Shown here: one piece after another, positions 10,158-36,476 of the stretch | Layout of the letters: each line of letters starts with the position of its first letter | Numbering within the stretch: position 1 is the first letter of the stretch | DNA from: an uncultured Isosphaeraceae bacterium | Lineage (GTDB): Bacteria > Planctomycetota > Phycisphaerae > Phycisphaerales > SM1A02 | Direction of reading: 5' to 3' | DNA length: 64,000 nucleotides | NCBI GenBank assembly: GCA_964385045.1 | Contig: CAYLNM010000002.1 | Coordinates: forward strand, 12,867 to 76,866 | Program-made: the position numbers and the translations under genes | Notes under the pieces: model-generated | Databases searched by the model: none | What the model was told of the DNA's origin: nothing | What the model saw: only the letters and a program-made list of their open reading frames with translations

Positions 10158-10612
10158 CGGCCCGCTCCCCCCGGAGGGTCGCGCTCCGGCACCGGATCGA
10201 ACCCGCAGCCGCCCCACGGCTGGCAGCGGGCCAGCCGCCGCACCGTCAGCCAGCCCCCGCGCACCGCGCCATGCGTCCGCAGCGCCTCCACCGCGTAGTC
10301 GCTGCACGTGGGGACGAACCGGCAGTGCCCGCCGAGGAAGGGACGCAGCGTCACCTGGTAGCCCCGGACCAGCAGCAGCAGCGGCCAGGCCGCGGGGGAG
10401 ACACGAGACCGCACGGGCGGCGCCGGCGACACGTCGGCCACGTCCGCCGCGTCGGCCACGTCCGTCGCGTCCGCTGCGTCCGCCACGTCCGTCGCGTCCG
10501 CCACGTTCGTCGCGTCCGCCGCGCCGGCCACGTGCTTCGCGTCCGGCGCATCCGCCGACGCGTCGGCGGCATCGCGGACGTCCCGACCTCGACCGACGTC
10601 CCCGCCGCTCAT
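10154..10612 (-). CDS. yidD: Membrane protein insertion efficiency factor YidD with acidic repeat N-extension
   Basis: C-terminal core [58 protein letters not shown] is the YidD signature. ATG at 10612 forms an ATGA overlap with the rnpA stop. The true start could instead lie downstream of the repeats. Confidence 0.85.
10431..10560 (-). repeat. In-frame tandem repeat (about 18-bp unit) inside the yidD 5' region
   Basis: gccacgtccgtcgcgtcc-like units occur at about 10456, 10481 and 10500, with degenerate flanking copies. They encode [12 protein letters not shown] hexapeptides, and every repeat codon is GC3. Confidence 0.75.
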
Positions 10613-10989
10613 TCCCGCCCCCCGCCCATGCCGAGCCGTGACGCGAGACCGCCCGCCGCCCGCCGCAGGATCGCGCCGAGCTCGTCGGTGCCGAGCAGCG
10701 GATCGTGGGGCCGGACGTGCACCACGAGGTCGATCGGCGGAAGCTCGGGAAGGGCGAGCCGGAACGCCTCGCGGATCCGCCGCCGGATGCGATTCCGCCG
10801 CGGGGCGGAGCCGACGCGGCGCGGGACCGCGAGCCCCAGCCGGGAGTGGGCCAGACCATTCGGCCGCGCGTGGACCAGCAGCGGGCCGATCCGCTTGCTC
10901 GTCCGGGCCGCGTAGACCGCCTCGAAGTCGCCGCGGCTGCGGACCCGGTGTCGCCGGCGAAACCGCAGGCGCTCCCCCGGGCCGCTCAC
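10609..10989 (-). CDS. rnpA: Ribonuclease P protein component
   Basis: [20 protein letters not shown]...[41 protein letters not shown] matches the RnpA pattern. GTG at 10989 overlaps the ClC stop (GTGA). Confidence 0.85.
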
Positions 10990-14548: not shown

Positions 14549-14870
14549 TCCCGCCGATTCCCGGACCCTCGGGGCGGGGCCGGCGCCATCGTGCGCGGCC
14601 GGGCCCGCGGTGGGCGGCCATGCTCGCGGCGCGCCGCATCGCCCGGGCCGCCGCCGGGCCCACCGCCGGCCTCGCCGCTCCGGCGGCCGCCAGCGCCACC
14701 ACCCCGGGCAGCACGCCGGCGCCCGTGCCGCGTCCGTCCCGGCGGCTGGCGATCCCGGATCAATGGCCGCCCCCACGGCGGCATCGCCCGCGCAGCCCCT
14801 TCCCCCACGGGCCGCGCTCCGCGATGCTGGTCCCGTGCCGGAGCCTCTCATCGCCCGGCCGGGAGCCGTC

Positions 14871-16703
14871 ATGACCGACCGATCGATCGTCCGTCCCCAC
14901 CGTCGTCCCGCCCGCCTGCGTCGCCTGGCCGGCGCGGCCCTCGCCTCCGCGGGCCTGGCCACGCTCGGCGCCGCCGTCCTCGCCGCACCCGCGCCCACCG
15001 CGGACGCGGCGACCGCGCTCGAGGGCCCGCGGCTCGCACCGTCCGCAGCCGCATCCGCAGCCGCACCCGTGCCCACCGGCCTCGGCGCGAGCGTCGACGA
15101 CGGCGAGCGGGCGCTCCGCCCGCTGCCCGCTCCCACCGGCCGCGACGGCGTGACCGACCTGCGCGTCGTCACGACCCCGGTGCCCGCGGCGCCGCGTCCC
15201 ACCGGCGACGCCCGCTCCGGCCTCCCCGCGGCCGACGCCCCCGAGGGCGACTGCCCGCCGGTGGTCGCCAGCCACACCGACGCCGACTTCACCGGCGGCA
15301 GCTTCGTGGCCCAGGCCGGCTTCGTGGAGAGCGAGATCGCCGCCGCGAGCTACACCCTCGCCCCCGGCGACTTCCCGATCCGCCTCGACCTCGCGGAGAT
15401 GATCTTCGTCACGTCCAACGCGACGGTGGAGACCACCACCGAGTGGAGTCTCCTCGTCTGGCAGGGCACCCCGGTCGACGGCACGATCGTGGCCGAGGTG
15501 TCGTCCGACGGCGAGCTCCTGCCGCACATCGTGATGCCGCCCGGCACCAGCGGCGTGAACGTGCAGGTGCTCGTCGATCCCGACGATCCCGAGCAGATCG
15601 TCATCCAGGACGACGGCAGCGCGACCTTCACGATCGGCTACCGCATCGACGCCCACAACCAGCCCTCGCCGCAGCCGTGCCTGATCGGCCCGGACCCGTG
15701 CTGCAACGCCTTCCCGGCCACCGACACCGGCGGCCTGCAGGAGCCGACCCGCAACTGGCTCCGCGGCATCGACTGCGGCTTCCTCGGCTGCCCGCCCGGC
15801 GGCGGCTGGACGACCTTCGCCGACCTGAACCCCCTCTGCCGCCCGAGCGGCGACTGGGTGATCCGCGCGACCTGGTCGAGCCTCGACTGCACCAGCGGCC
15901 CGGCCGGCGCCTGCTGCCTGCCCGACGGCACCTGCGACGTCCTCACCGCGGCCGCCTGCGAGTCGGCCGGCGGCATCTACTTCGGGGACGGCGTCCTCTG
16001 CGGCGAGGTGACGTGCCCCGATCCGGTCGGGGCGTGCTGCCTCGGGACCACGTGCGCCGTCGGCAGCGAGGCCGACTGCGACGACATCGGGGGCGTGTTC
16101 CTCGGGCTCGGCACCGACTGCGCCGACGACGCCTGCTCCGCCCCCGGCGCCTGCTGCATCCCCGCCACCGGCGGCTGCCTCACCCTCGCCCCCGACGACT
16201 GCGAGGCGGTGGGCGGCATCTTCCAGGGGCCGGCCACCCGGTGCGCGGACGTGATCTGCTTCCCCGAGGGGGCGTGCTGCCTCCCGAGCGGCGACTGCCT
16301 CGACGGCGTCTCGCCCGAGGACTGCGGCGCGGTGGGCGGCACCTTCCAGGGCGACGGCACCGCCTGCGGCACCGTCGAGTGCCCGGAGCCGATCGGCGCG
16401 TGCTGCCTGCAGGACGGCGCGGTCTGCCTCGAGCTGACCGAGGCGGACTGCACGATCGTCGCGGGCACCTGGGCCGGACCGGCCACCACGTGCACCGACG
16501 GCGACGGCGACGGCACGGCCGACGACTGCACCGCCTGTCCCCCCGACCTCGACGGCTCGGGGGCGATCGACTTCGGCGACATCCTCTCGGTGCTCTCGGC
16601 GTGGGGCGCCTGCGGCGATCCCTGCCCCGAGGACCTCGACGGATCGGCCGCGGTCGACTTCGACGACCTGCTCACCGTCCTCGGGGCGTTCGGCCCCTGC
16701 TGA
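14871..16703 (+). CDS. Secreted protein with five Cys-rich GACC repeats and two C-terminal dockerin/EF-hand-like repeats
   Basis: ATG at 14871 gives the signal peptide MTDRSIVRPHRRPARLRRLAGAALASAGLATLGAAVLAAPAPTADA. There are five units of about 40 aa with the pattern GACC..(D)G.C....(D)C...GG.F.G.G..C....C at 15906-16538. These are followed by DLDGSGAIDFGDILSVLSAWG and DLDGSAAVDFDDLLTVLGAFG. Confidence 0.8.
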   Translation: MTDRSIVRPHRRPARLRRLAGAALASAGLATLGAAVLAAPAPTADAATALEGPRLAPSAAASAAAPVPTGLGASVDDGERALRPLPAPTGRDGVTDLRVVTTPVPAAPRPTGDARSGLPAADAPEGDCPPVVASHTDADFTGGSFVAQAGFVESEIAAASYTLAPGDFPIRLDLAEMIFVTSNATVETTTEWSLLVWQGTPVDGTIVAEVSSDGELLPHIVMPPGTSGVNVQVLVDPDDPEQIVIQDDGSATFTIGYRIDAHNQPSPQPCLIGPDPCCNAFPATDTGGLQEPTRNWLRGIDCGFLGCPPGGGWTTFADLNPLCRPSGDWVIRATWSSLDCTSGPAGACCLPDGTCDVLTAAACESAGGIYFGDGVLCGEVTCPDPVGACCLGTTCAVGSEADCDDIGGVFLGLGTDCADDACSAPGACCIPATGGCLTLAPDDCEAVGGIFQGPATRCADVICFPEGACCLPSGDCLDGVSPEDCGAVGGTFQGDGTACGTVECPEPIGACCLQDGAVCLELTEADCTIVAGTWAGPATTCTDGDGDGTADDCTACPPDLDGSGAIDFGDILSVLSAWGACGDPCPEDLDGSAAVDFDDLLTVLGAFGPC

Positions 16704-17212: not shown

Positions 17213-17230
17213 GCGCCCCCGCCCGGGGGC
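17213..17230 (-). terminator. GC hairpin immediately downstream of the 660-aa gene
   Basis: CGCCCCCG-cc-CGGGGGCG lies 5 nt beyond the stop codon at 17235-17237. It has no U-tail. Confidence 0.4.
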
Positions 17231-17234: not shown

Positions 17235-19217
17235 TCACTGCCGCTCGATCTCGTCCCGGGCCCGCTGCTCGGCCTCGCGCCGCTGCTGCTCGGCCTCGGC
17301 CTCGGCGATCATCGCCCGGACCTGCTCGAGGTTGGCGGGGGGCGGGAAGAGCTCCGCCGCGGAGTACCGCTGGCCGAGGGGGTGCCGCTGCAGCTGCCGC
17401 CGCAGGTCGTCGATCACGTCGTCGTACGCGTAGGCCCGGGCGAGCTCCGCCCCGCGGAACCCATCGACGCGGCTCCAGATCGTCACCCGCTCCTCGAGCG
17501 GGATGCCCGGATCGCGCATCACGACCTTGAACGCCTCCCGCACCAGGGTCGGCGTGTCCTGCAGCATGTCCCGCACGCGGCCGACGCCGAACTTGTTGGT
17601 GAAGTCGTAGTACTCGTTCTCCTTGAAGATCGTCACGACCTGGGCGACGAACGTCAGGGCATTGGTCCAGACCTCCTCGCGGCCGCGGCCGACGCCCACG
17701 CGGTAGGCGTACCGCATGGAGGCGATCGCCTCGCTGGGAGCGAGGTGCGGCTGGAAGCCGTACTCCTCCTCGATCTCGTCGCGGACGAAGGCCTCCAGCG
17801 GCTTCTGGAACCGCGGGTTCTGCAGGCCCGGCCGGGCTCCGGAGCCGAAGAGGCCGTCGAGCCGGTCGAGCAGCTGCTGGGCTCGCGCGAACTCGCCCGA
17901 GCGATACGCCTCGCGGACCGCCGAGGCCATGAAGTTCTGCAGGAACCCGATGAAGCCCTCGCCGCCCGCCCCGCGGGTGTCGAAGTGCTTGTCGTAGTAG
18001 ACGCCGAACAGATCGGCGATGGTGTCGACGAACCGCGGCTCCGGGAAGCGGCTCACCCACTCGCCGGAGAACGGGTCGAAGATGATGCGGCCGAAGCGGG
18101 CGAGGCCCTGGATCGCCTGGAGCTGCTGGCGGTCGTTGTTGAGGGCGATGTAGATCGAGTTGGTGTCCGCGACGCCGATCGACGCCCGCCGCTCGCCGAG
18201 CCGCGACCAGTAGAGCGCGTGGGCGTAGCCGCTCCGCCAGTCGATGGGCCCGAGCTCCTCGGTCAGGGCGAGCATGAACGCCGGGTCCATGTTGAACTCG
18301 TCCCGCAGCACGCGGTAGCGGGTGAACCGGATCAGGGTCCGCCACTGCTCGGCGACGTCCGGGTCCGACGCCACGTCGTCGAAGGCGGCGAAGCTCGCCC
18401 GGCTCCGCCGGTACTGCTCCTTGATGCCGAGGATCTCGGCGATCTCCGTGTCGCGGTTGACCGCCTGCCACTCACCGTAGCGCATGAGGAACTCGGACGA
18501 CACGGAGTACGTCGCCTGCTCTCCGAAGGGCCCCATCGACTCGTCGAAGCGCTGGATCAGGGTGAGCACGCCCGGCGTGCGCCGCTCGGCCTCCTCGAGG
18601 GAGCGCGGGGCCTCGGCCACCGCGCGGATCCACTCGATCCGGCTCTCCCAGTCCTCGGGCGGCGCCCCGAGCAGGTAGTGCCACTGGCGGGCGAGCTCGG
18701 TCTTGTAATAGAGGTGCGCGTCGTCGGAGACGCCCTCGATCTTGTGCGCGAACCAGAACGCGAGGTCCCGGTGCAGCTGCATGTTGTTGGGGTTGTGCCG
18801 CAGGCCCTCGTTGCGGACGAGGCGGATGCCCGCCTGCACCCACTCCCACCGCTCGGCCATCGTGTGGGTGGCGACCGAGATGTTGTAGGCCATGTTGTGG
18901 CCGTGGAAGATCCAGACCTGGGCGAACCGCGGCTGCAGCTTGGTGATGAGCTCGGCGTCGGCCATCACCTCGAAGAACAGCCCCTGGTCCTTCATGTAGT
19001 TGACCTTGAGCCACAGGATGTCGACGATCAGCCCGCGCAGGGCACCGATCGCGGTCCCGATGGCCACCCACGGTGGGGCCCCCTCGACCGAGGTCGTGGT
19101 GTACCGCAGCCCGCGCTCGTCCGACTGGTCGACGAGCCGCGGCAGCATGGTGCCGCCGGCGGCGGAGGCGCCGACCGCGACGGCGAGGGCGATGGCCTGG
19201 ATGGTGCGTGCGTTCAT
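17235..19217 (-). CDS. Membrane-anchored helical protein of unknown function (last gene of the SPFH/ABC operon)
   Basis: 660-aa GC3-rich ORF. It has an N-terminal hydrophobic anchor (AIALAVAVGASAAGG) and a second hydrophobic segment (WVAIGTAIGALRGLIVDILWL). The remainder is Trp/Tyr/Arg-rich helical sequence with no motif I recognise. Confidence 0.75.
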   Translation of the reverse strand: MNARTIQAIALAVAVGASAAGGTMLPRLVDQSDERGLRYTTTSVEGAPPWVAIGTAIGALRGLIVDILWLKVNYMKDQGLFFEVMADAELITKLQPRFAQVWIFHGHNMAYNISVATHTMAERWEWVQAGIRLVRNEGLRHNPNNMQLHRDLAFWFAHKIEGVSDDAHLYYKTELARQWHYLLGAPPEDWESRIEWIRAVAEAPRSLEEAERRTPGVLTLIQRFDESMGPFGEQATYSVSSEFLMRYGEWQAVNRDTEIAEILGIKEQYRRSRASFAAFDDVASDPDVAEQWRTLIRFTRYRVLRDEFNMDPAFMLALTEELGPIDWRSGYAHALYWSRLGERRASIGVADTNSIYIALNNDRQQLQAIQGLARFGRIIFDPFSGEWVSRFPEPRFVDTIADLFGVYYDKHFDTRGAGGEGFIGFLQNFMASAVREAYRSGEFARAQQLLDRLDGLFGSGARPGLQNPRFQKPLEAFVRDEIEEEYGFQPHLAPSEAIASMRYAYRVGVGRGREEVWTNALTFVAQVVTIFKENEYYDFTNKFGVGRVRDMLQDTPTLVREAFKVVMRDPGIPLEERVTIWSRVDGFRGAELARAYAYDDVIDDLRRQLQRHPLGQRYSAAELFPPPANLEQVRAMIAEAEAEQQRREAEQRARDEIERQ

Positions 19218-19350
19218 GGCGAGGCTCCCGGGGACGGGGCTCCGGAGATCGGGATCGAAGGCCGGCCCGGCGCGCCCGGCGACGCCGGGACCCGAGTCGG
19301 AGCCGGGCCGCGGCGGTTCGGCCGCGCGGCCCCGGCGGCCGCGGGCCGGG

Positions 19351-21417
19351 TCAGCCCTGCCCGCTGTAGATGGCGAGCTGGCGGCGCCGCATGACGAACC
19401 AGCCGACGAGGAGGGCGAGGCCGCTCCACAGCAGCCCGATGCGGAAGAAGCCCTGGACGACCGCGTCCCAGGAGATCAGCCGGCCCTCCACCAGCAGCTG
19501 GGTCGGCCGGACCCGCCCGAAGGACTCGAGCAGGAAGACCGTGCCCGAGGCGATCGCCTTGATCGTCGACTGCGTCACCCACTGGATCGCCATGCCGGCG
19601 TTGGTCCAGTCCACCATGTCGAAGGGCACGGGCCCGTAGTACTCGAGGCTGCGGGCGAGGAACGGCCCCATGGTGCCGGCGATGAAGATCGTGAAGGCGG
19701 TCAGGCAGGCCACCGGGAAGTTCAGGAACGTCCCGCAGGCGATGCCGAGCATCGCGAGGAAGCCGAGCTTGGTGATGTTGACGATCATCGCCCGGCCGAA
19801 GTTGGCCTCGAAGGTGCTCACGCGGTACAGCAGCTCGAACTCGTCGCCGTCCCAGTTCATTGCGCCGACCACCGAGCCGTCGGGCATCCGCATGCCCTCG
19901 TACAAGTTGGCGACGTCGACCACCAGCGTCCCGTCGTCCTGCACGAACGACGCGGGCACGGTCACGACGTGGGACATCGTGGGCACGTAGGTCCGCTCGA
20001 TGACCAGCTGGTCGTCGCGGTTGAACCGGAAGGCCGCGGGATAGGTCTCGTGCTCGTCCGACCGCATGATGTGGAATCGGTAGCGAAGCGTCAGCATCTC
20101 GTCCGGCTCGAACTGGCGGTCGAGGCCCGTGAAGACGTACTCGCGGCTCCGCTGGGGCGGGATGCTGCGCTGGAGCCGGCTCCACTCGTCGACGACCTGG
20201 ATCGCGAGCTCACGCTGGGTCTCGATCGGCACCGCCTCCATGGTCGAGAGCTGCGGGTCGCGATCGATCCGCTGCTCGACCCGCGCCTGGATCTGCTCGC
20301 CGGTCAGCCGCTCGTAGTCGGGCCGCAGGCCGACCCGGGCGGTGAGCACCGCGTCGCGCACCTGCTGGTAGTCCTCCTGGCCCTCGATGCCCGGGGCCAC
20401 CGGCAGCTGCCGCATGTACTGGACGTAGCCGAAGATCGACAGCGAGGCGATCGCCATGATCACCACGTTGACCGCGACGATGCCGATCCACTTGCCGAGC
20501 AGGTAGGTGCCGCGGCTGATCGGCTTGGCCACGACCTGCCAGATCTGGCGATCGCGGATCTCGAACGCGACCGTCGCGCAGGCGAGGAACAGCGTCATCG
20601 CGGCGGCGAGGTAGAACGTCAGCCCCATCGAGCGGGCGATGAAGGTCTGGATCCGGAATCGCAGCGGCGACTCGGGGTCGAGCCCGAGCGGCAGCAGCGG
20701 GAGCAGCACGAGGATCAGGACGATGAAGACGAGCGGGATGCCGGTCCGGGTCGCCTCCTTCATGACGGTGTGGGCCACCGCCAGCACCCGGTGGGTCGGG
20801 TCGAGGAGGCCCATGACGATACGAGCGAGCAGCAGGTAGGAGAACACGAGGACCACCATCGCGGCCACCGCCCAGCCGAAGGCGGCCTGCCCGACGAGCG
20901 ACGCGAGCCCGAGCGCGATCCCGGCGGCGGCGACCGTGATCACGAACGGCACCGTGCTCGCGCTGGCCACGACCAGCAGCAGCAGTCCGGTGCTGGTGAG
21001 GGCCAGCAGCGTCGTGGTCCGAGGCTGCTCGAGCAGCCAGCGTGGGGCCCACTCGGGGTAGGACGCTCGGAGCAGGACCTCGGCGAGACCCTCCGGGAAC
21101 TCGATCGTTCCCGCGGCGTCGAACATCAGCTCGGCCTGCTCGGCGAGCATCTCGTCGCCGTAGGTGACGCCGCCCACCTCGATCACGCCCCGCTCGGCCA
21201 ACGCCACCGCGATCGGATCGCCCTCGGACAGGCTCTGGCCGCTCAGCGCCTCGATGAGCTCGCCGCGGCGCTGCGCGATGTCGCGCGACTCGAGGATGAG
21301 CCGCCCCCAGGTGAAGCCCGAGGCGACGACCACCAGCACCGCGGCCGCGATCATGAAGCCGCGGGTGCGCTGGCGGGCGTCGAGTCGTCGGTACCAGGCC
21401 TTCAGACGCTCGATCAC
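19351..21417 (-). CDS. ABC-2-type permease-like membrane protein with large extracytoplasmic insert
   Basis: GTG at 21417 overlaps the ATPase stop (GTGA). It has multiple TM segments and the ABC-2-like motif EIRDRQIWQVVAKPISRGTYLLGKWIG. A soluble insert of about 250 aa precedes the C-terminal TM bundle. Confidence 0.75.
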   Translation of the reverse strand: MIERLKAWYRRLDARQRTRGFMIAAAVLVVVASGFTWGRLILESRDIAQRRGELIEALSGQSLSEGDPIAVALAERGVIEVGGVTYGDEMLAEQAELMFDAAGTIEFPEGLAEVLLRASYPEWAPRWLLEQPRTTTLLALTSTGLLLLVVASASTVPFVITVAAAGIALGLASLVGQAAFGWAVAAMVVLVFSYLLLARIVMGLLDPTHRVLAVAHTVMKEATRTGIPLVFIVLILVLLPLLPLGLDPESPLRFRIQTFIARSMGLTFYLAAAMTLFLACATVAFEIRDRQIWQVVAKPISRGTYLLGKWIGIVAVNVVIMAIASLSIFGYVQYMRQLPVAPGIEGQEDYQQVRDAVLTARVGLRPDYERLTGEQIQARVEQRIDRDPQLSTMEAVPIETQRELAIQVVDEWSRLQRSIPPQRSREYVFTGLDRQFEPDEMLTLRYRFHIMRSDEHETYPAAFRFNRDDQLVIERTYVPTMSHVVTVPASFVQDDGTLVVDVANLYEGMRMPDGSVVGAMNWDGDEFELLYRVSTFEANFGRAMIVNITKLGFLAMLGIACGTFLNFPVACLTAFTIFIAGTMGPFLARSLEYYGPVPFDMVDWTNAGMAIQWVTQSTIKAIASGTVFLLESFGRVRPTQLLVEGRLISWDAVVQGFFRIGLLWSGLALLVGWFVMRRRQLAIYSGQG

Positions 21418-22682
21418 CGGCGGTCCTCCTCCCCGGCGTCATCGTCCCGCCGGCGATCGGTCTCGTCCCCGTCGCTCCCGCTCCCCCCGCCGCCGAGCAG
21501 CGAGTCGATGACGGTGCGGTCGACCTCGGGCGTGGACGCCCCGGACTCGCCTCGGACCTCGGCCGCCCGTGGGGCCGGCTCCGGTCGATCGGACATCAGC
21601 TCCTCGAGCACCGCCCCGCCGGCCTCCTCCTCCCGGAGGGCCGCCTCGCGGGCGGCCCGGGAGCGATCGACCTCGACCGCCCGGGCCTGCTGCTCGCGGG
21701 GCGCGGTGACGAGCTCCTCGATCAGCTCGCCCGCCTCCGCCGGCTCGCCGTCCTCGCCGCGGAGGAAGGCCGCGGTCTCGCCGCCCGCGGTCGCGCCGCT
21801 GGTGGCCACCTGCTCGGCCCGAGCCCGCTCGACGATGTCGAGGAACAGGTCCTCGAGGCGCTGCCGGGGGGCGTCCACCGCCTCCACGTCCACGCCCGCC
21901 GACGCGAGGGCGGCGCGGACGCGGACGAGCGTCGCCTCGTCGAGCCGCGGGGTGCGGATCACGGTGTGGGCGGCGTCCTGCAGCAGGTCGCCGGTGGGCC
22001 CCTCGGCCCGGATGCGGCCGCCGTAGAGCATCACCATGCGGTCGCACACGTCCTCGACGTCGGCGAGCAGGTGCGACGAGAGCAGGATGGTCTTGCCGCG
22101 ACGCCGCAGCTCGAGCATCAGGTCCTTGACCTGCCGGGTGCCGATCGGGTCGAGGCCCGAGGTCGGCTCGTCGAGGATCAGCAGCTCGGGGTCGTTGATC
22201 AGGGCCTGGGCGATCCCGATGCGGCGGGTCATGCCCTTGGAGAACTCCCCCACCGCCCGGTGGGCCATGTGGGTGAGGCCGACCATCTCCAGCAACTCGC
22301 CCGTGCGCCGCTTCCGCGTGCGGCGGTCGAGGCCGAAGAGCTTGCCGTAGTAGTCGAGGGTCTCGGACGCGGTGAGGTACCGGTAGAGGTACGACTCCTC
22401 GGGCAGGAACCCGATGTGCTTCTTGACCGCCACGTCGGTGGGCAGCTTGCCGAAGACGGTCAGGCGGCCCCCGGTCACGTTGAGCAGCCCGAGGATCATC
22501 TTGATCGTGGTCGACTTGCCCGAGCCGTTGGGCCCGAGGAGCCCGAAGATCTCGTTGGGGTGGATCTCGAAGTCGATGCCGTCGACCGCCCGCGCCTTCT
22601 CCCGCATCCAGAAGTCGCGGAAGACCTTGGTCAGGCCGACGGCCTGGACGAGGGGGGTGCGCTCGGGAGTGGGGCTGACCAT
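21414..22682 (-). CDS. ABC transporter ATP-binding protein with acidic C-terminal tail
   Basis: Walker A GPNGSGKSTT, signature FSKGMTRRIGIAQAL, Walker B LLILDEPTSGLD, H-loop LSSHLL. The last 120 aa or so are Glu/Asp/Ala-rich. Confidence 0.92.
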   Translation of the reverse strand: MVSPTPERTPLVQAVGLTKVFRDFWMREKARAVDGIDFEIHPNEIFGLLGPNGSGKSTTIKMILGLLNVTGGRLTVFGKLPTDVAVKKHIGFLPEESYLYRYLTASETLDYYGKLFGLDRRTRKRRTGELLEMVGLTHMAHRAVGEFSKGMTRRIGIAQALINDPELLILDEPTSGLDPIGTRQVKDLMLELRRRGKTILLSSHLLADVEDVCDRMVMLYGGRIRAEGPTGDLLQDAAHTVIRTPRLDEATLVRVRAALASAGVDVEAVDAPRQRLEDLFLDIVERARAEQVATSGATAGGETAAFLRGEDGEPAEAGELIEELVTAPREQQARAVEVDRSRAAREAALREEEAGGAVLEELMSDRPEPAPRAAEVRGESGASTPEVDRTVIDSLLGGGGSGSDGDETDRRRDDDAGEEDRR

Positions 22683-22754
22683 GGGTCGCTCCGGTCGGTT
22701 CGTCCGCCGGCGGCGCGGGCCGCGTCCGCGCGGGCGGGTCGGGGACGGACGGCC

Positions 22755-24347
22755 TCAGCCGTCGAAGGTGGCACCGCGATCGAGCTGGCGACCGGGACGG
22801 CGCTCGAGCTGCCGCTCCATGCCCTCGGCGCCCTGCAGGAACGGCAGCGAGCCGCCGAAGCCGCGCATGGACTCCCGCTCGGCCCGGTCGAGATCCGCGT
22901 CGCGGCGACGCCGCTGGATCTCCTCGTTGCCGCTCAGCATCAGCCGGAACGTGTTGAGCGAGTCCGGCACCTGGATCACCTCGGTGTCGCTCGGCCGCAG
23001 GATGCGGGCGTAGGCCTGCGCCCACTCGCGGTTGATCACGAGCTCCGGGTTCCGCAGGTACGAGTCGAGCAGCTCCTGGTACGCCAGGTACTGCTGGCCG
23101 AGCGTCGCCTCGATGAAGCTGCGTCGGGCCCGGGCCTGCTCGATGAAGAGCGCGATCTGGCCCGACTTGCCGCGATCCTCGAGCAGCGCGTCGATCTCGG
23201 CGAGGATCGACTCCGCCTCCGGCGTCTCCGCGGTCGGATCGGCCGTCTCGTACGCGTCGATGAGGTTGAGCAACTCGCGGTAGTTCTCGCCCGCGACCTC
23301 GATGAGCGTCGCCTCGGCGAGCTGCCGGGCGTTCTCGAGGTCGCGCTCGACGTTCTGCCGCCGCTGCTGCAGCTCCCGCTGGGCCCGCACGATCGCGAGG
23401 GCGGGGACCGGATCGGTGGGGGTCGAGAGCTCCGAGATCCGGATCCCGGTGTCGATCCCCTCGCGGCCGAGGAAGTCCTCCGCGTCGCGCCGGATGTCCT
23501 CGCGCTCCTGGTCGGTGAAGTCCACGAGCGACTCGAGGTCGAGCCCCGCGGCGGTGTGCACGGCGGCCCGCATGACCGACAGCTTCACCGCCCGGTCCGC
23601 GTCGAGCCCCGCGGTGTCGGGGTCGCCCTCGACGAGGGGGGCGTTCGCCACCGCCTCCACGAACGACACCGGATCGAGCACGTCGTAGGTGGCCCGCAGC
23701 TGCAGGTGGGCGATGTCGCCGCCCGCGGTGAGGACGTAGCCGGTGCCGAGTCCGTCGCGGTTCGGGCCGGGACGGATGATCTGGTTCGCGACCGCGTCGT
23801 CCACCGCATCGTCGAACGTGGCCGCGGTGATCCGCGGCCAGAAGTCGCGGGTGAGGTCCACCTCGCGGTTGCGGTCGCGAAAGATCACGAACTCGCCCGC
23901 CGGATACGGCAGCACGCTGAACTGGGCGCCCGGCTCGAGGGCCTGCTGGCCCGGCTCGCCCACGATCGCGCCGAATCGGAGCATGACGCCCGACTGGGTC
24001 TGCTCGACGCGGGTCACGCCGGAGAAGACGAAGACCACGACGAGGGCCACGATGACGACCTGCAGGACGCGGTAGCTGAGTCGCAGGGCCTCGCGCAGCG
24101 ACTGATTGGCCGGGTCCATCGCCTCGCGGAGGCCGGCTCGCGAGCCGACCTCGGCGTCGACGAGGAACTCCGCCGACGCCGCCCGACGCGGCATCTCCGG
24201 CTCGAGCTCCGGATCGCGCTCCTCGAGCACGTCGCCCGCGCTCGGTCCGGCCGGTCGCTCGTCCTCGGGCCGGTCCGCCGGACGGCCGCCGGGGTCGCCG
24301 CGGCCGGGGGTCCCGGGGGTGCCGGGGGTGGTGGGATCGTCGGCCAT
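22755..24347 (-). CDS. SPFH/band-7 protein (HflK-like) with disordered N-tail
   Basis: Pro/Gly/Asp-rich N-terminus, one TM segment (VLQVVIVALVVVFVFSGV), then the SPFH onset VEQTQSGVMLRFGAIVGEP and a coiled-coil C-terminal half. Confidence 0.75.
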   Translation of the reverse strand: MADDPTTPGTPGTPGRGDPGGRPADRPEDERPAGPSAGDVLEERDPELEPEMPRRAASAEFLVDAEVGSRAGLREAMDPANQSLREALRLSYRVLQVVIVALVVVFVFSGVTRVEQTQSGVMLRFGAIVGEPGQQALEPGAQFSVLPYPAGEFVIFRDRNREVDLTRDFWPRITAATFDDAVDDAVANQIIRPGPNRDGLGTGYVLTAGGDIAHLQLRATYDVLDPVSFVEAVANAPLVEGDPDTAGLDADRAVKLSVMRAAVHTAAGLDLESLVDFTDQEREDIRRDAEDFLGREGIDTGIRISELSTPTDPVPALAIVRAQRELQQRRQNVERDLENARQLAEATLIEVAGENYRELLNLIDAYETADPTAETPEAESILAEIDALLEDRGKSGQIALFIEQARARRSFIEATLGQQYLAYQELLDSYLRNPELVINREWAQAYARILRPSDTEVIQVPDSLNTFRLMLSGNEEIQRRRRDADLDRAERESMRGFGGSLPFLQGAEGMERQLERRPGRQLDRGATFDG

Positions 24348-24350
24348 CGG

Positions 24351-25322
24351 TCAGTTCCCCGTCCGCTCGGCGGTGGTCGCGGGGGCAGCGGGTGCCCCGA
24401 CCCCGCGATCGGGCTGCGGCACCGCGTCCTCGCGGCCCGCGACCCGCGTCGAGTCGATCAGGTGCCACGGGGCGGCGTCCGCCGGCAGGATGATGGTGGT
24501 GCGGTTGTTGAGCGAGGCTTCGAGGGTGTCGAGCCACGCGAGGAAGATCGCGAGCTCCTGGTTGCCCCGCATGCCCTCGAGCAGCTCCTTGGCGTATCGG
24601 GCCGCGGCGCCCTCGATCTCGCGGGCCCGTCGGTTGGCGAAGCTGCGGATCTTGTCCGCCTCGGTGTTGGCCCCGGCGATGAGGTTCTGCTGGGCGGCCT
24701 GGCCCTTGCGGTTCTCCGCCTCGCTGAGGCTGCGGCGCTCGGCCTCCATGCGCTCGACCACCGCCCGGGCGGTGCGCGGGGGCAGCATGAGCTGGCTGAC
24801 GCCCACCGCCACGATCTCGACGCCGCCGTCGGCGGTCTCCTCCGCCATCGCCGCGCGGATCCGGTCCTCGGCTTCCTCGAGCCGGTTCTCGGCCCCGACG
24901 AGCTCGTCGAAGGCGTAGGCCCCGAGCCCGGCGCTGAATGCGGTGCGGAACCGGGTCTGCAACGTCCCGGCCGCCCGCTCGATCGACTCGAACTGGTCGT
25001 AGAAGTCGAGCGGGCCGGACCCGTCGCTCCGCACCCGCCAGAAGAGGAAGCCGCGGGCCACGACCTGCAGGTCGTCGGCGGTCGGCGTCTCCTCGAGCGG
25101 CGTCTCGATCACCTGCAGCCGGGTGTCGAGCTTCGTCACCTGGTCGATGAAGATCGGCCAGCGGAACTTGAGGCCGGAGTCCTCCACCACGCTCGACTCG
25201 TCCACCGATCCGAACGTGGCGCGGATCGCGACCTCGTTGTACTTGACGGTGTACGTCACGCTGAACAGCAGGAACGCGACGAACAGCAGTCCGCCCACGA
25301 TCACGGCAAGGGGCTTGTTCAT
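24351..25322 (-). CDS. SPFH/band-7 protein (HflC-like)
   Basis: ATG at 25322 forms an ATGA overlap with the upstream stop. The N-terminal TM is followed by YNEVAIRATFG, GLKFRWPIFIDQVTKLDTRLQ, VEIVAVGVSQLMLPPRTARAVVERMEAERR and LAIFLAWLDTLEASL, which are collinear with E. coli HflC. Confidence 0.85.
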   Translation of the reverse strand: MNKPLAVIVGGLLFVAFLLFSVTYTVKYNEVAIRATFGSVDESSVVEDSGLKFRWPIFIDQVTKLDTRLQVIETPLEETPTADDLQVVARGFLFWRVRSDGSGPLDFYDQFESIERAAGTLQTRFRTAFSAGLGAYAFDELVGAENRLEEAEDRIRAAMAEETADGGVEIVAVGVSQLMLPPRTARAVVERMEAERRSLSEAENRKGQAAQQNLIAGANTEADKIRSFANRRAREIEGAAARYAKELLEGMRGNQELAIFLAWLDTLEASLNNRTTIILPADAAPWHLIDSTRVAGREDAVPQPDRGVGAPAAPATTAERTGN

Positions 25323-27406
25323 CAGGGCTGCTCCTCGGTCCCGGCGTCGGGCTCGCCGAGAGCGTCGTAGATCGACGTGAGCGGGTCGATCGTGTTGAAC
25401 TCGAAGTCGATGTCGAGCCGGCCGGGATCGATGGCCAGCACGTACTTGTTGATCCCACCCATGTTCCGGCGGTAGACCGCCATCTCCTCGAGGACGCGGT
25501 AGAGATCGGGCGCCGCCTCGTAGGGCAGCGTCTCGCTCTCGATCCGGGCCACCTGGGCCCGGGCATCCATGATCTGGACGAGCCCGCCGGAGGAGGCCTG
25601 CGCGAGCGTGAGCGCCGCGTCGCCCCCGGACTGCATGATGAGCGACTCCGCCGCGGCCAGCGCCGCCTGCGTCTCGGGATGATCCGATCCGTGGACGTCG
25701 AGCGCCGCCTCGTAGGCGTCGATCGCCTCGATCACCGGGTCGGCGTTCGCGGGATCGCCGATGATCCCGGCGAGGCCGGAGACGACCTGCTGCTCGCCGC
25801 CGACGACGCGCTGGCGTCGTCGCTGGACCGCCACCGAGTACTCCTCCCAGGCCCGGGCGGCATCGCCGTGGGGGCGGAGGAGGGGGATCGTCACCGCGTT
25901 GAGCTCGATCCCGCTCTCGGCCGCGTCGAAGGCGGACTGGATCCGCTCGCGAAGGTCCCGCGCGAGCTCGAGGCGGTTCGACGCCAGCACCTCGCCGAGG
26001 GTCATGCTCCGCATCTGGGCGGAGACCTCGCGGAGCGCCATGGCCTTGAGGGCCCGCTCGCGGTCGTCGAGGTCCTGTCGTCGCCGGTCGACGTCGGGGA
26101 CGAACCGCAGCAGGTCCATGAGCCCGCCGTCCTCGCGGATGTGGTACTGCAGGATGATCTCGGCGTCGACGAGGCTCAGGAGCTCGGCCGGCCCCTGCTG
26201 CCCCACGTCCCCCGTGCCCTGCACCACGAACGGATCGAGCGGGGCGTCGAAGAAGCGGCCGAGGTCGTTGAAGAACAGCTGCACGTCCGGCGGCACCACC
26301 TGCCGCGAGGTCAGGTGCAGCTCGCGGACGTCCGAGACGTCGAACCGCTCGGCCGACTGGAGGGGCCACGGCAGCTTGAGCATGATCCCGGAGCGGGCCG
26401 GCTGCTCGGACACCAGCGAGCCGGCCGAGAGCCGGATCGCCTGCTGGTTCGGCTCCACCACCACCATCGTGCTCAGGATCAGCACCACCGCCGCCGCGGT
26501 GGCGCCGAGGCCGGCCACGCTCCGCGTCAGGAGTCGGTAGCCCCAGGACGAGGTGATGTCGAAGCCGAACTGATAGTTCACCGCGTCGTTGATGGTCCGG
26601 ACGATGTTGTCCGGGGCCGCGACGAGGCTCAGGAGCTTGGAGTCGAACGCCGGCCGCGGCACCTCGCCGGGCACCCGCGGGCGGTAGACGTTCAGGATGA
26701 AGTTGAGGACGACCTCCGCCGCGAGCACGAAGAGGTACCACGGCAGGGCCGCGTCGATCCAGCCGATCACCTCGTCGTTGTCGAAGAAGCGGAAGACGAT
26801 GCCCACCGCGACCGCGAGGGTCACGATCGAGATGCCGACCATCGCCGAGGCGCCGCCGCGGAGGTTCTGCCACGCCTCCTGCTTGGCCATGCCGGCGACG
26901 AAGCGGGAGAAGATGAACGCGATCCCGGCGAAGCCGAGGCAGATCGCCACCGCCCAGCCGCGGAGGTCGGTGAGCTGGGCGTCCTTCGCGCCGCTCGCGA
27001 TCGCCTGCAGGTCGCGGAGGATCAGCAGGCCGACCCCCACGAGGGCCAGGGCGACCACGATCGAGAGCACCGGCATGAAGATCTGGTGCATCCGCTGCAG
27101 GCGGCGGGCGGCGACGCGGGTCTCGGTCCCCTCGCGCTCGAAGACCGACGCGGCGTCGCCGCGGCCGGCGGCGAGCTCGTCCTCTTCGAGCGCCTCGAGC
27201 CGCTCGAGCTTGTGCTGGTGGAACAGGGCGGTCAGGCCACCCCAGGGCAGGAGCCCCAGCAGCACCACGAACGAGGCGTGGAGGAACGGGGTGTCGTCGG
27301 CGAGGAGGCCGAACATCAGCATCGTCAGGCCGATGGCCGCCTGGACGAGGAGCCCGACTCCGGCCACCCGGGTCGCTTGCTGGTATGCGTGGTGGTCGAT
27401 GCGCAT
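25322..27406 (-). CDS. Polytopic membrane protein fused to a C-terminal SPFH/band-7 domain
   Basis: 694 aa. There are six to seven hydrophobic segments in the first 300 aa or so. An SPFH-like region follows (VVVEPNQQAIRLSAG..., ILQYHIRE, GIELNAVTIPLLRP), then a helical tail. Confidence 0.75.
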   Translation of the reverse strand: MRIDHHAYQQATRVAGVGLLVQAAIGLTMLMFGLLADDTPFLHASFVVLLGLLPWGGLTALFHQHKLERLEALEEDELAAGRGDAASVFEREGTETRVAARRLQRMHQIFMPVLSIVVALALVGVGLLILRDLQAIASGAKDAQLTDLRGWAVAICLGFAGIAFIFSRFVAGMAKQEAWQNLRGGASAMVGISIVTLAVAVGIVFRFFDNDEVIGWIDAALPWYLFVLAAEVVLNFILNVYRPRVPGEVPRPAFDSKLLSLVAAPDNIVRTINDAVNYQFGFDITSSWGYRLLTRSVAGLGATAAAVVLILSTMVVVEPNQQAIRLSAGSLVSEQPARSGIMLKLPWPLQSAERFDVSDVRELHLTSRQVVPPDVQLFFNDLGRFFDAPLDPFVVQGTGDVGQQGPAELLSLVDAEIILQYHIREDGGLMDLLRFVPDVDRRRQDLDDRERALKAMALREVSAQMRSMTLGEVLASNRLELARDLRERIQSAFDAAESGIELNAVTIPLLRPHGDAARAWEEYSVAVQRRRQRVVGGEQQVVSGLAGIIGDPANADPVIEAIDAYEAALDVHGSDHPETQAALAAAESLIMQSGGDAALTLAQASSGGLVQIMDARAQVARIESETLPYEAAPDLYRVLEEMAVYRRNMGGINKYVLAIDPGRLDIDFEFNTIDPLTSIYDALGEPDAGTEEQP

Positions 27407-27667
27407 GGGCGTACGGTTCCCATCCGCTCGCGGGAGGGCGGCGGCGGCGGGCGGTCCGGGCGTCCGGACCCGAACCCCGCGCGAACGCGACGCCGGGCGA
27501 CGAGCCGATCGTCACCCGCGAGCGAGCCGAGGATGGTACGCGGAACGGCCGCTCGGAAGCGTCGTCCGCGGAGGGTGACCCGCCCGTCGAGATGGGCACG
27601 CGGGGCGAGCCGGGAAGAGATGACCGGCGTCGGGGACGGACCCCGAACATCCGGCACCGTGGATACG

Positions 27668-27673
27668 TAGACT
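27668..27673 (+). promoter_or_regulatory. Candidate -10 hexamer TAGACT in the divergent 650-bp spacer
   Basis: gatacgTAGACTtcgccg is oriented toward the ABC-2 permease gene at 28056, 383 nt downstream. Confidence 0.3.
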
Positions 27674-28055
27674 TCGCCGATCCGGGTTCGCGTCCCCCGA
27701 GGAATTCGCGGCCGCCTGATCCCGGTTCGCCACTTCTCCCCGCCCGCCGCCCCGGGGCCGTTCGGCCGACCGGCGGGCTCGCTACCCTCCGCGGTCCGCG
27801 GAGCCCGTCGCGCACGGGCCGTCCCGCTCCCGCCCGTCCCCGCCCCGCTCCCACGCGGCCCGTTCGTCGCCGGGGCGCCCCGGCGGCTCCCCCGCGAGCG
27901 GCGACGTCTCCGGACCCGTCGCGGGCGGGGCCCGCCCGGCTCCCCGGAGCCCGACCCGGCCGATCCGGCCCCGCTCGGGACGCCCCCGCTGCCTCCGCCT
28001 CCGTTCGCCCCCCGCGGCCGCGCTCGCACCGGCCCCGAGCCCCCCGGACTCCCAC

Positions 28056-29195
28056 ATGCTCGATCAGCTCCTGGGCATCTTCCGGAACACGTTCTTCGAG
28101 TCGATCCGCCAGCCGATCGCGCTGGTGGTCCTCTCGATCGCGACCATCGCCCTGGTGCTCTCGAATCCGCTGTCGGCGTTCACCATGGAGAGCGACCAGC
28201 GGATGCTCGTGGACATCGGCCTCGCCACGGTCTTCCTCTGCGGCGGGCTGCTCGCCTCGTTCATCGCCACCGGCGTGCTCACGCGGGAGATCGAGAACCG
28301 CACGGCCCTCACCGTGGTGTCCAAGCCGGTGGGCCGCCCGATGTTCGTGATCGGCAAGTTCCTCGGGGTCGCGGCGGCGATGCTGCTCTGCACCCTCTTC
28401 ATGAGCCTGGTCTTCCTGCTCGTCGAGCAGCACAGCGTGCTGGAGACGGTGCGCGACCCGGTGCACGTTCCGGTGATCGTCTTCGGCGTCTCGGGCCTGC
28501 TGCTCGGCGTCGGCATCGCGACGTGGTGCAACTACTTCTACGGCATGAACTTCACGAGCACCGCGATCTGGGCGACCACCCCGCTGCTGCTCGTGGCGTT
28601 CGTGCTCAGCCTCCTGTTCCGGCCCGACTTCACCCCGCAGCCGCCCGGCCGCTCGTTCGAGCCCGACCTGATCAAGGCGATCGTGGTGATGACGATGGCG
28701 ATCATGGTGCTGGTGGCGGTGGCGGTGGCCGCCTCCGCCCGCCTCGGGCAGGTCATGACGCTGATGATCACGCTCGGCGTGTTCCTGCTCGGCCTGCTGT
28801 CCGACTGGCTCTTCGGCCGCCGGATCGAGGCGATCCGCGGCACCTGGCTGGACCGGGCCCGGTCGCAGGGGCTCACCGAGCGGCAGGAGGTCGTCCGCGA
28901 GTACACGCTCGTGACCGGGGAGGTCCAGCGCGACCCGTTCCCGGTGGAGGTCGACGTCCCCACCGTGCCGCTGGAGCAGATGGCCGAGGGGGGCGAGCGG
29001 CTGGCCATGCTCGCGTGGCAGCTCGTCTACGGGATCGTGCCCAACTTCCAGGTGCTCTGGCTCAGCGACGCTCTGACCCAGCAGCGGCTGATCCCGATGA
29101 GCTACGTCGGCGGCAGCCTGCTCTACGGGGCGACCTACGTCGTCGCCGCCCTCGCCCTCGCGGTGCTCCTGTTCCAGCGGCGCGAGGTGGGCTGA
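28056..29195 (+). CDS. ABC-2-type transporter permease (COG1277-like), no adjacent ATPase
   Basis: 379 aa and about 6 TM segments. The motif REIENRTALTVVSKPVGRPMFVIGKFLG is paralogous to the motif in 19351..21417. Confidence 0.8.
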   Translation: MLDQLLGIFRNTFFESIRQPIALVVLSIATIALVLSNPLSAFTMESDQRMLVDIGLATVFLCGGLLASFIATGVLTREIENRTALTVVSKPVGRPMFVIGKFLGVAAAMLLCTLFMSLVFLLVEQHSVLETVRDPVHVPVIVFGVSGLLLGVGIATWCNYFYGMNFTSTAIWATTPLLLVAFVLSLLFRPDFTPQPPGRSFEPDLIKAIVVMTMAIMVLVAVAVAASARLGQVMTLMITLGVFLLGLLSDWLFGRRIEAIRGTWLDRARSQGLTERQEVVREYTLVTGEVQRDPFPVEVDVPTVPLEQMAEGGERLAMLAWQLVYGIVPNFQVLWLSDALTQQRLIPMSYVGGSLLYGATYVVAALALAVLLFQRREVG

Positions 29196-29301: not shown

Positions 29302-32310
<3,009 letters not shown>

Positions 32311-34397: not shown

Positions 34398-35900
34398 TCA
34401 GGCCGCGACCGCGCGCTGCACGAGCCGCGTCAGGTCCAGCAGCGGGCGCGGGTCGGCTCCGCGGACCCGGACCACCGGCTCCCCCCGATCGTCGGCGAGG
34501 ATCTCGATTGGCCCCCGCTGGTCCTCCTCGAACTCGTACTCGCGTCCGCGCACGCCCACGATCGCGCGGTGGTGGATGCGGCGCTCGATCCGCAGGCAGA
34601 TGCGCCGGCCGTGCTTGATCCGCCGCAGGAGCTCGAGGTCCTTCCGCTGCATCGCCTCGTGCCGGAGGCGGCGGCCGCGCTGGGCCGCCCGGAGCTCCTC
34701 GAGCTCGTCGTCGGGCACCCCGCTCGCGGCCAGCGACTCGATGCGGGCGTCCTCCGACGCGATCTCGCGCTCGAGCTCGCGCGCCATCTCGCGGAGCCGG
34801 CGCACCGCCCGGGTCTCCAGGGGCACCTCGCCGAGGACGAGCCGGGTCGGTGCCCCGGCTCCCGAGCCGAAGACGGACGCCCGCACGCGGCCCGTCACCA
34901 CGCTCGTGCCGCCCACGATCGCCCCACGATCCACGAGCAGGTCGCCGCCGACGACCAGCTCGGACTCGATGAGCTCGCGCCGGCAGGTGAGCGTGCCCCG
35001 GATCCGGCCCCGAGCCTGGTTGAGGTAGCTGACCTCGCAGTCGCCGTCGACCACGAGCATGCCGCGCTCCTTGGCCGCCATGCCGCTGTGGCAGTAGAGA
35101 TCGCCGCCGATCAGCAGGGTCGCCGACTCGATCAGGCCGCCGATCGACGTGTCGCCGGTGCACCGCACGGTGAACCGGTCCTTCACGCCCCCGCGTATCA
35201 GCAGGGCCCCCCCGAAGTCGACGTTGCCGGTGGAGAAGTCGACGTCGTTCGAGATCTCGAGGACCGGATCGATCCAGGCCCGGACCGCGTCCACCGCGAC
35301 CCGGCCCGCCGCCCGGGCCCGGACCACGCCGCCCTCCGCGATCTCGAGGGTCGCCTCGTCGAGCTCCAGCGTCATGTCCCGGCCGTCGCGGGCGGGCAGC
35401 TCCTCGCCGGTCACGGTCCGGCCGGGCACCCCGTCGGTCGGCCGCCGGATGCGCCCGACCGCCTCGCCGACCTCCACCGTCCTGAGGTCACCCCCCGCGT
35501 AGTGATCGACCGATCCGTCGCCCTCGCCCCCGCCCTCGCCGTCATCACCGGCGTCCGCGGCCCCCTCGGCCGCATCGTGCTCGTCGCCGACGTCCGGCAG
35601 CGCCGTCAGCACCGACTTCGGCACCAGCCCCGGCTCCCAGCGGACGTGCATGTCGGCGCCGTGGCGGGGCGGCCGGCCCTCGGCGATCACGGCCTCGAAC
35701 GGCATCGGGCCCGGCTCGAAGCCCTCGAGCACGTCGGCGATCCGGCGCTCGACGTCCTCGTCCGGCACCACGCCCCGCTGGGCCGCGTGGGCGAGGATCG
35801 TGCCGGCGGTGACACCGGCGCCCTGGCCCGGGCGGAACACCAGGACCGCGCTCATGCGGTCCCTGGCCAGCCGAACGTCGAATCCCTGGGCTCCCGACAT
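34398..35900 (-). CDS. DUF342/FapA-family protein
   Basis: ATG at 35900. Beta-helix-like repeats (NVDFGGALLIRGGVKDRFTVRCTGDTSIGGLIESATLLIGGDLYCHSGM...) are followed by a coiled coil and a C-terminal ...RIHHRAIVGVRG.EYEF domain, as in FapA/DUF342 proteins. Confidence 0.7.
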   Translation of the reverse strand: MSGAQGFDVRLARDRMSAVLVFRPGQGAGVTAGTILAHAAQRGVVPDEDVERRIADVLEGFEPGPMPFEAVIAEGRPPRHGADMHVRWEPGLVPKSVLTALPDVGDEHDAAEGAADAGDDGEGGGEGDGSVDHYAGGDLRTVEVGEAVGRIRRPTDGVPGRTVTGEELPARDGRDMTLELDEATLEIAEGGVVRARAAGRVAVDAVRAWIDPVLEISNDVDFSTGNVDFGGALLIRGGVKDRFTVRCTGDTSIGGLIESATLLIGGDLYCHSGMAAKERGMLVVDGDCEVSYLNQARGRIRGTLTCRRELIESELVVGGDLLVDRGAIVGGTSVVTGRVRASVFGSGAGAPTRLVLGEVPLETRAVRRLREMARELEREIASEDARIESLAASGVPDDELEELRAAQRGRRLRHEAMQRKDLELLRRIKHGRRICLRIERRIHHRAIVGVRGREYEFEEDQRGPIEILADDRGEPVVRVRGADPRPLLDLTRLVQRAVAA

Positions 35901-36459: not shown

Positions 36460-36476
36460 CGCTTCGCTCCCCTGGC

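Follow-up and report, generated by a model that had tools for sequence, protein, structure and literature searches.

A conserved seven-gene locus of Phycisphaerae combines three HflK/HflC-like SPFH genes with genes for a putative two-permease ABC-2 transporter

Cages formed by flotillin, prohibitin, erlin and stomatin have been visualized by electron cryo-microscopy, and the clients of such cages have mostly been chance finds. What SPFH cages do beyond the HflK/HflC-FtsH complex is an open question, for which a genome that itself points to a candidate client is of interest. Among the closest described systems, the stomatin cage encapsulates aquaporin-1 and urea transporter-B (UT-B) (PMC12407830; PDB 9ZD2), three SPFH genes of P. 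aeruginosa, PaFlo5-PaFlo6-PaFlo7, lie in one predicted operon (PMC13086221), and a 2009 survey of prokaryotic SPFH operons names no ABC partner (PMC2636767). Here we describe a locus in 64,000 nucleotides (nt) of DNA from an uncultured Isosphaeraceae bacterium of the class Phycisphaerae (assembly GCA_964385045.1, contig CAYLNM010000002.1, positions 12,867 to 76,866; the whole stretch is called the window below), in which three SPFH genes stand together with an ABC ATPase gene, two permease genes and a gene for a helical protein. The locus is chromosomal and comprises seven genes, one open reading frame (ORF) on the plus strand, ORF0, being divergent to six on the minus strand, ORF1 to ORF6. 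All seven genes, in identical order and on identical strands, were found in every one of the 58 non-redundant loci whose DNA extends at least 9.3 kb upstream of ORF6. The features are as follows, in window coordinates.

28056..29195, plus strand: ORF0, predicted ABC-2 family permease of 379 amino acids (aa); GC content at third codon positions (GC3) 0.99
27407..28055, no strand: divergent intergenic region between ORF0 and ORF1, 650 nt, 80% GC
25322..27406, minus strand: ORF1, 694 aa; seven-helix membrane domain, HflK-like SPFH domain, coiled coil and C-terminal region
24351..25322, minus strand: ORF2, 323 aa; HflC-like SPFH protein with one N-terminal membrane helix
22755..24347, minus strand: ORF3, 530 aa; HflK-like SPFH protein; acidic N-terminal tail rich in Pro and Gly, single membrane helix, long coiled coil
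21414..22682, minus strand: ORF4, 422 aa; ABC ATPase (ABC-2 type, DrrA/GldA-like) with an acidic C-terminal extension
19351..21417, minus strand: ORF5, 688 aa; long, predicted ABC-2 permease
17235..19217, minus strand: ORF6, 660 aa; predicted all-alpha solenoid with an N-terminal anchor, from a family without annotation
17215..17230, minus strand: GC hairpin, GCCCCC-GGGC-GGGGGC, 5 nt past the ORF6 stop codon

Relatives of the locus were collected from species-representative genomes, which were scanned with a profile built on 48 diverse homologues of ORF6; at least 600 genomes matched, and the best 80 loci were used. Comparison of the seven window proteins with all loci by tblastn was based on 81 non-redundant loci, including the 58 with sufficient upstream DNA. 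ORF0 was present and divergent in every one of these 58, and the 23 shorter loci carried exactly those genes for which their DNA has room. Two loci that had been retrieved via ORF1, not via ORF6, demonstrated the identical arrangement. Across the loci, identity to the window proteins drops to 23-35% for ORF0, ORF1, ORF2, ORF3 and ORF5 and to 30% for ORF6, with per-protein medians of 34-61%. The flanks are variable, and the commonest gene downstream of ORF6 occurs in 26 of 59 loci. A first-pass annotation, made from the letters of the window alone, had proposed that the SPFH and ABC genes form one unit, and had named a lack of linkage in related genomes as the main result that would speak against it. 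Such a lack can be rejected, because the complete loci are intact down to about 30% identity in ORF6 and the shorter and ORF1-anchored loci are consistent with them. The titles of the locus records are mostly Phycisphaerales, Phycisphaerae or Planctomycetota, and the odd ones (Limnohabitans, Vicinamibacteraceae, Cyanobacteria, Kuenenia) are probably mislabelled bins. In the genomes examined, the seven-gene system appears to be characteristic of Phycisphaerae (Planctomycetota).

The genes are also closely spaced. In the window, ORF1 to ORF5 follow each other on one strand with overlaps or gaps of 1-72 nt, and the corresponding overlaps or gaps in four annotated loci (L001, L002, L004, L005) are 4-57 nt. 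In every locus inspected, the ABC genes begin 17-72 nt past ORF3 on the same strand. We propose, with about an even chance of being right, that the three SPFH subunits form a cage facing the periplasm, by which a heterodimeric ABC-2 exporter is corralled or regulated.

Because the GC content of the window is 69-80%, long spurious ORFs are common in it. ORF1 to ORF6 have a GC3 of 0.95-0.98 and a second-position GC of 0.42-0.47, a pattern typical for coding DNA of this 73% GC genome, and are genuine genes. Translations and GC3 thereby bear out the six minus-strand ORFs of the first-pass annotation at their coordinates. Its proposal of a six-gene operon is right as to these six genes and too small as to the unit, since ORF0 (28056-29195, plus strand) lay outside the range considered and was overlooked; we count seven genes because the transporter includes a pair of paralogous permeases, ORF0 and ORF5. 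The junctions had been described correctly as gaps of 3, 72 and 133 nt and a GTGA overlap at 21414-21417, with one correction: the supposed ATGA overlap at 25322 is a 1-nt TGATG overlap, formed by the ORF1 stop codon TGA (25324-25322) and the ORF2 start codon ATG (25322-25320).

ORF6 is the last gene of the unit, as the gene that follows it (14610-16703, plus strand, GC3 0.94) is convergent with it. The 697-aa product of this convergent gene matched no Pfam or NCBIfam family. The GC hairpin previously noted behind ORF6 is present (17230-17215), with a fold energy of -27.9 kcal/mol (z = -2.1 versus shuffles, 7 of 200 shuffles folding equally well). Its reading as a terminator is less secure, as the hairpin has no T run and is absent from the output of the consensus terminator scan, and it may contribute to the end of the transcript. 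At the other side of the unit, the 650-nt divergent region presumably contains both promoters; no ORF with coding-type GC3 periodicity, no sigma-70-type consensus site and no Rfam family match were found in 27407-28055, and the promoter and terminator consensus scan gave no site at the operon ends. An intergenic gap of 305-713 nt is found at the equivalent position in the four annotated loci.

Searches with hidden Markov models, as had been suggested, confirmed the SPFH domains: with a Pfam gathering score of 23.6 bits for Band_7 (PF01145), ORF1 scored 38.7, ORF2 85.9 and ORF3 33.7 bits. The earlier count of membrane helices was likewise supported, with seven hydrophobic segments in ORF1 (six to seven had been stated) and one each in ORF2 and ORF3. 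Against the PDB, an ORF2 profile of 45 homologues matched full-length E. coli HflC (E 2e-44; stomatin about 1e-11), the ORF3 family profile matched HflK (E 9e-32), and the ORF1 family profile matched HflK over its C-terminal half only (E 1.9e-24). Family profiles were needed for ORF1 and ORF3, for which single-sequence PDB searches gave no match. ORF1 and ORF3 are paralogues by hhalign (probability 99.8%, E 6e-30, 371 columns), the alignment taking in a conserved motif right before the membrane helix, and ORF2 and ORF3 are related with a profile-comparison probability of 99.1%. Judged by these profiles, ORF1 to ORF3 belong to the HflK/HflC branch of the SPFH proteins, with ORF2 as the HflC-like member and ORF3 and ORF1 as HflK-like paralogues. 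The HflC-like gene sits between two HflK-like genes.

The predicted topologies, derived from hydropathy and charge counts, place the SPFH domain outside in all three proteins. In ORF3, a 93-aa Pro/Gly-rich acidic N-terminal tail precedes the membrane helix (residues 94-112). In ORF1, the seven-helix membrane domain spans residues 1-317. The AlphaFold2 model of ORF1 has a predicted local distance difference test (pLDDT) value of 79.8, and in Foldseek its C-terminal half matched HflK (9cz2_XA, E 2e-10, target-normalised template-modelling (TM) score 0.58) as well as erlin, stomatin, prohibitin and flotillin, all of which are cage-forming SPFH proteins. For the N-terminal seven-helix domain, no significant Foldseek match was obtained, and the isolated segment had no Pfam match. 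The idea that this domain is a degenerate ABC-2 permease was ruled out by an hhalign probability of 2%. The best-conserved segment of ORF1 is a predicted cytoplasmic loop at residues 239-298, with a mean column conservation of 0.77, within which residues 265-290 have a pLDDT below 50. High conservation combined with partly low pLDDT is a pattern typical of a partner-binding motif, and the loop may be of this type. In two metagenome-assembled loci, the ORF1 homologue contains an in-frame stop codon (L021, 2284-4398; L032, 1915-4074) with the remaining cluster intact, reflecting either an assembly error or a pseudogene.

The kinship of the three proteins with HflK and HflC leads to the alternative that survives best. 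ORF2, ORF3 and ORF1 could be the lineage's own HflC/HflK, caging and modulating an FtsH encoded elsewhere, and the ABC-2 genes and ORF6 would then be tied to them loosely at most, for example in membrane-protein or envelope quality control. We regard this as unlikely, though it keeps real weight because ORF1 to ORF3 belong to the HflK/HflC branch: their profiles match E. coli HflC/HflK far better than stomatin, QmcA, erlin or prohibitin, and ORF2 and ORF3 share HflC/HflK topology and lengths. The FtsH gene of E. coli lies outside the hflKC operon. All three proteins nevertheless score well under the NCBIfam equivalog cut-offs, ORF2 reaching 86.4 bits against 134.4 for hflC (TIGR01932), and ORF3 and ORF1 reaching 19.3 and 33.6 bits against 159.4 for hflK (TIGR01933). 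Nor does canonical HflK/C have a third subunit with a seven-helix domain, and the short distance between ORF3 and the ABC genes, together with a gene set that never varies in the complete loci, also speaks against this alternative. Within the window, the absence of ftsH that had been noted earlier holds, as neither an FtsH HExGH motif nor an AAA Walker A motif is present in any of the frames of the 64 kb. The absence of nfeD, claimed for the same stretch, stands for the seven cluster proteins, none of which matched an nfeD-type family. A role with FtsH would be compatible with the proposed cage around an exporter, since one cage could hold both clients.

The transporter genes comprise one ATPase gene and two permease genes. 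ORF4 had been called an ABC ATPase with an acidic tail, and this is correct: it matches ABC_tran (1e-30) and contains 39 D/E versus 20 K/R after residue 270. The tail is conserved in 70 homologues, with a median protein length of 407 aa and a median net charge of -10. The best NCBIfam subfamily for ORF4 is drrA (TIGR01188; 212 bits versus a subfamily cut-off of 312), and no equivalog cut-off is reached (GldA 184.5 versus 402.6, NodI 163 versus 549, LptB 141.4 versus 240 bits). For ABC2_membrane_2, with a gathering score of 27.2 bits, the window copies of ORF0 (26.5 bits) and ORF5 (21.4 bits) fall slightly under the threshold; at E<=1e-3, 33 of 40 members of the ORF0 family and 33 of 49 members of the ORF5 family match. 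The earlier view of ORF5 as an ABC-2-like permease has weak support from the window copy and more from its family. Homologues of ORF5 are named 'ABC transporter permease' (NCBI) or 'ABC-type transport system involved in multi-copper enzyme maturation permease subunit' (JGI).

The second permease gene was recognized from the inspected loci with an ORF6 homologue (L001, L002, L004, L005), all of which have, upstream of the ORF1 homologue, a divergent gene for a product of about 378 aa; the window ORF0 is 54-73% identical to these products. Aligned by hhalign, ORF0 (residues 3-376) matches ORF5 (209-681) with a probability of 96.8% and E 3e-10, and at the level of these profiles ORF0 is a paralogue of the ORF5 core. 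Beyond this core, ORF5 has about 200 additional aa at its N-terminus and, past the third core helix, an insert of about 210 aa, which is probably periplasmic. Pfam searches with the isolated ORF5 insert, the ORF5 N-terminal extension and the ORF0 insert gave no family, and profile searches of the PDB with ORF5 and ORF0 gave no sequence relative. The simplest reading of one ATPase gene and two permease genes would be a heterodimeric ORF0-ORF5 membrane part with an ORF4 dimer. In agreement with export and not import, the cluster contains no gene for a solute-binding protein: no solute-binding family was matched among the seven cluster proteins, and the SBP_bac_5 genes at 32-4010 are part of a separate opp/dpp operon. 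For an ABC-2 exporter without a solute-binding protein, the substrate would most plausibly belong to the envelope lipids, glycolipids or polymers.

Directly downstream of ORF0 in the window, on the same strand and after a gap of 106 nt, lies uvrA (29302-32310, plus strand), and the same adjacency is found in L087 (uvrA at 5478-8444). On account of this, ORF0 may be co-transcribed with uvrA in some genomes. In L086, uvrA (4218-7151) is two small genes away from the ORF0 homologue.

The position of ORF0 bears on a further alternative, in which the SPFH trio is one module, the ABC-2 transporter with an accessory solenoid is another, and the two, functionally unrelated, are adjacent through inherited synteny within one class. 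All loci examined come from one lineage, as their titles indicate, and some flanking genes are syntenic in subsets of them too. The seven genes are retained in all complete loci, however, compared with 26 of 59 for the best flanking gene, and their linkage persists in loci so divergent that identity to the window proteins is only 23-30% for ORF3 and ORF5. The ORF3-ORF4 junction, a gap and not an overlap, would suit a border between two modules; the second permease gene lies beyond the SPFH genes, so that the modules are interleaved. Two permease genes that flank the SPFH genes on either side weaken pure synteny as an explanation, and we consider it improbable.

The remaining neighbourhood is of a housekeeping kind, with genes for an opp/dpp importer, a CLC channel, a flavoprotein, uvrA, a glycosyltransferase, ispD, fapA, cheX, a tRNA, serS, NAD kinase (nadK) and obg. 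An Rfam search of the window gave the tRNA only, distant from the locus. That the locus is an accessory island for stress, resistance or phage defence, for example an efflux pump for drugs or bacteriocins together with SPFH proteins that protect the membrane, is very improbable: ORF4 is nearest to the DrrA (daunorubicin resistance) subfamily and also matches lantibiotic-protection ABC ATPases, and SPFH proteins act in membrane-stress responses of other bacteria (PMC8581546), whereas the PADLOC defence models matched no cluster protein except the generic ATPase, the surrounding genes (opp/dpp, CLC, uvrA, ispD, serS, nadK, obg) are those of a housekeeping region, and the locus is invariant and apparently inherited vertically, not patchy.

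Some other parts of the window were also noted. The genes for FapA (flagellar assembly protein A) and CheX (chemotaxis phosphatase) are neighbours at 34398-36986 on the minus strand, which suggests a motile organism. At 54244-55191 (minus strand), the window has a second ABC ATPase gene, which stands alone. The GC-richest part of the window (46001-48000, 80% GC) coincides with very long overlapping ORFs at 45287-49897 (plus strand) and 46905-49907 (minus strand), neither of which shows a clean GC3 pattern. About 3.4 kb (7563-10986) that separate the CLC gene from the opp/dpp ATPase gene contain no ORF with a clean coding GC3, the best candidate being 8799-10859 on the minus strand (GC3 0.86, second-position GC 0.67).

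ORF6 had been described as an anchored, helical protein without a recognizable motif, and this description agrees with our results. No Pfam or NCBIfam family and no TPR, SEL1 or HAT repeat family was matched by sequence, and a profile search of the PDB gave no relative. Its more than 600 close homologues are all unnamed and come from Phycisphaerae or Planctomycetota. In a library of 1.84 billion proteins clustered at 50% identity, the family counts 2139 cluster representatives with E<=1e-3, of which 632 reach E<=1e-30, and at least 600 species-representative genomes contain a relative. The AlphaFold2 model, a prediction that had been recommended, is all helical (pLDDT 88.4, predicted TM-score (pTM) 0.83). 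Foldseek against the PDB revealed weak matches to solenoids of the TPR/HAT type (best E 2.2e-3, TM-score at most 0.25, or at most 0.15 when normalised by query length). An all-alpha fold of the polysaccharide-lyase or lytic-transglycosylase type, an idea that came from conserved N/H/Y/R/D residues, was dropped because no such protein is among the top 50 Foldseek matches.

In 48 homologues of ORF6, the first helix is strongly hydrophobic and the N-terminus basic, and the second helix has a mean hydropathy of 1.23 with about two charges. These values favour one N-terminal anchor and a periplasmic body over a hairpin. Conservation peaks at residues 61-180 beside the anchor, with many invariant polar residues. 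Some homologues (P0144, P0155, P0157, P0234 and others) are 720-814 aa long and match in two stretches, which points to 60-150 extra aa, inserted after about residue 200, in some lineages.

Together, these features suggest how a cage and an exporter might work as one machine. ORF1, ORF2 and ORF3 would co-assemble as a hetero-oligomeric ring or cage in the style of HflK/C on the periplasmic face of the inner membrane; a common periplasmic cage is proposed because the predicted topologies put all three SPFH domains outside. The cage would enclose or dock an ORF0-ORF5-(ORF4)2 exporter and would confine, stabilise or gate it, comparable to E. coli HflK/C with FtsH or to stomatin with aquaporin-1 and UT-B. 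The transporter, or the acidic tail of ORF4, would most likely be contacted by the polytopic domain of ORF1 and by the conserved cytoplasmic motif that precedes the membrane helix in both ORF1 and ORF3. ORF6 might serve as a periplasmic scaffold or ligand-binding partner, with a conserved polar patch (about residues 95-180) adjoining the membrane.

Several points weigh against the proposed cage around an exporter. The case consists of genes and predicted structures, from which physical interaction and co-transcription are predicted. At least two transcripts are needed, because ORF0 is on the opposite strand. The nearest relatives of the SPFH trio are HflK and HflC, whose known client is FtsH, and ftsH could be elsewhere in the genome. 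Nearly all loci are from one lineage, so that adjacency could partly reflect shared ancestry, and part of the loci also share neighbours such as CLC, rnpA and yidD in synteny. ORF0 and ORF5 of the window score just below the Pfam gathering thresholds, and the topologies of the cluster proteins are based on hydropathy and charge counts, not on experiment.

More tentatively, an HflK/C-type cage of three paralogues could be hard-wired to an ABC transporter throughout Phycisphaerae, instead of or besides FtsH, which we hold to be possible and somewhat doubtful. If this reading is true, cage and periplasmic solenoid would form a dedicated membrane compartment for the ATP-driven export or extraction of an envelope component, and the locus would encode the first genetically defined bacterial SPFH cage-transporter machine. 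An invariant operon with three HflK/C-like subunits and a two-permease ABC-2 transporter makes the idea of a cage and its client directly testable. The locus also draws attention to three modules that have no family annotation and are widely distributed among environmental Planctomycetota, namely the seven-helix domain of ORF1, the inserts of ORF5 and the solenoid family of ORF6.

The first-pass annotation could not match the arrangement to a described system, and neither could we: in the literature searched (SPFH with ABC, Planctomycetes, and division or membrane complexes of Phycisphaerae), no SPFH-ABC-2 operon and no description of this locus was found. The building blocks all come from known superfamilies, and it is their combination, the fusion of a seven-helix domain to an HflK-like protein and the ORF6 family that appear to be undescribed.

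Compared with known systems, the transporter part is closest to the two-permease ABC-2 (type V) exporters of the NosFY and GldAFG type. Shared features are one DrrA/GldA-like ATPase with permeases that probably belong to the ABC2_membrane clan, one permease with a large extracytoplasmic region, and the lack of a solute-binding protein. The locus differs from these exporters in that ORF4 reaches no equivalog cut-off, GldA included, in that ORF0 and ORF5 have no match to GldF, GldG or NosY, and in that SPFH genes are part of the locus and not of those systems. LptB2FG is no better match, as ORF4 stays under the LptB cut-off and no LptF or LptG family was matched in the cluster.

For the SPFH part, the PaFlo5-PaFlo6-PaFlo7 operon (PMC13086221) likewise holds three SPFH genes together, a likeness in gene count. 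It differs in its patchy distribution, its function is not known, and the words 'ABC' and 'transporter' occur zero times in the paper. The SPFH-NfeD operons (QmcA-YbbJ, FloA-NfeD, PH1511-PH1510) resemble the locus in joining an SPFH gene to a membrane partner in a conserved operon, whereas our cluster has no NfeD domain and its partner is an ATP-driven transporter with a solenoid. The stomatin cage provides a precedent for an SPFH cage around a channel or transporter, and the SPFH part of ORF1 aligns with stomatin structurally. It is eukaryotic, homo-oligomeric and on the cytoplasmic face, with genetically unlinked clients, so that the general principle alone is held in common.

The nearest relative is the HflK/HflC-FtsH complex of E. 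coli (PDB 7VHP, 7WI3, 9CZ2). As in that complex, ORF1 to ORF3 combine an SPFH domain with a long coiled coil, the profile matches are to HflC for ORF2 and to HflK for ORF3 and ORF1, and the SPFH domain would be periplasmic because a membrane helix precedes it. Canonical hflK-hflC is a gene pair whose products have one N-terminal helix each; the locus has three genes for three types of subunit, one of them with a seven-helix domain, and its HflC-like gene comes before the HflK-like ORF3. The operon partner of the three SPFH genes is a putative ABC-2 transporter, and the 64-kb window has no ftsH motif.

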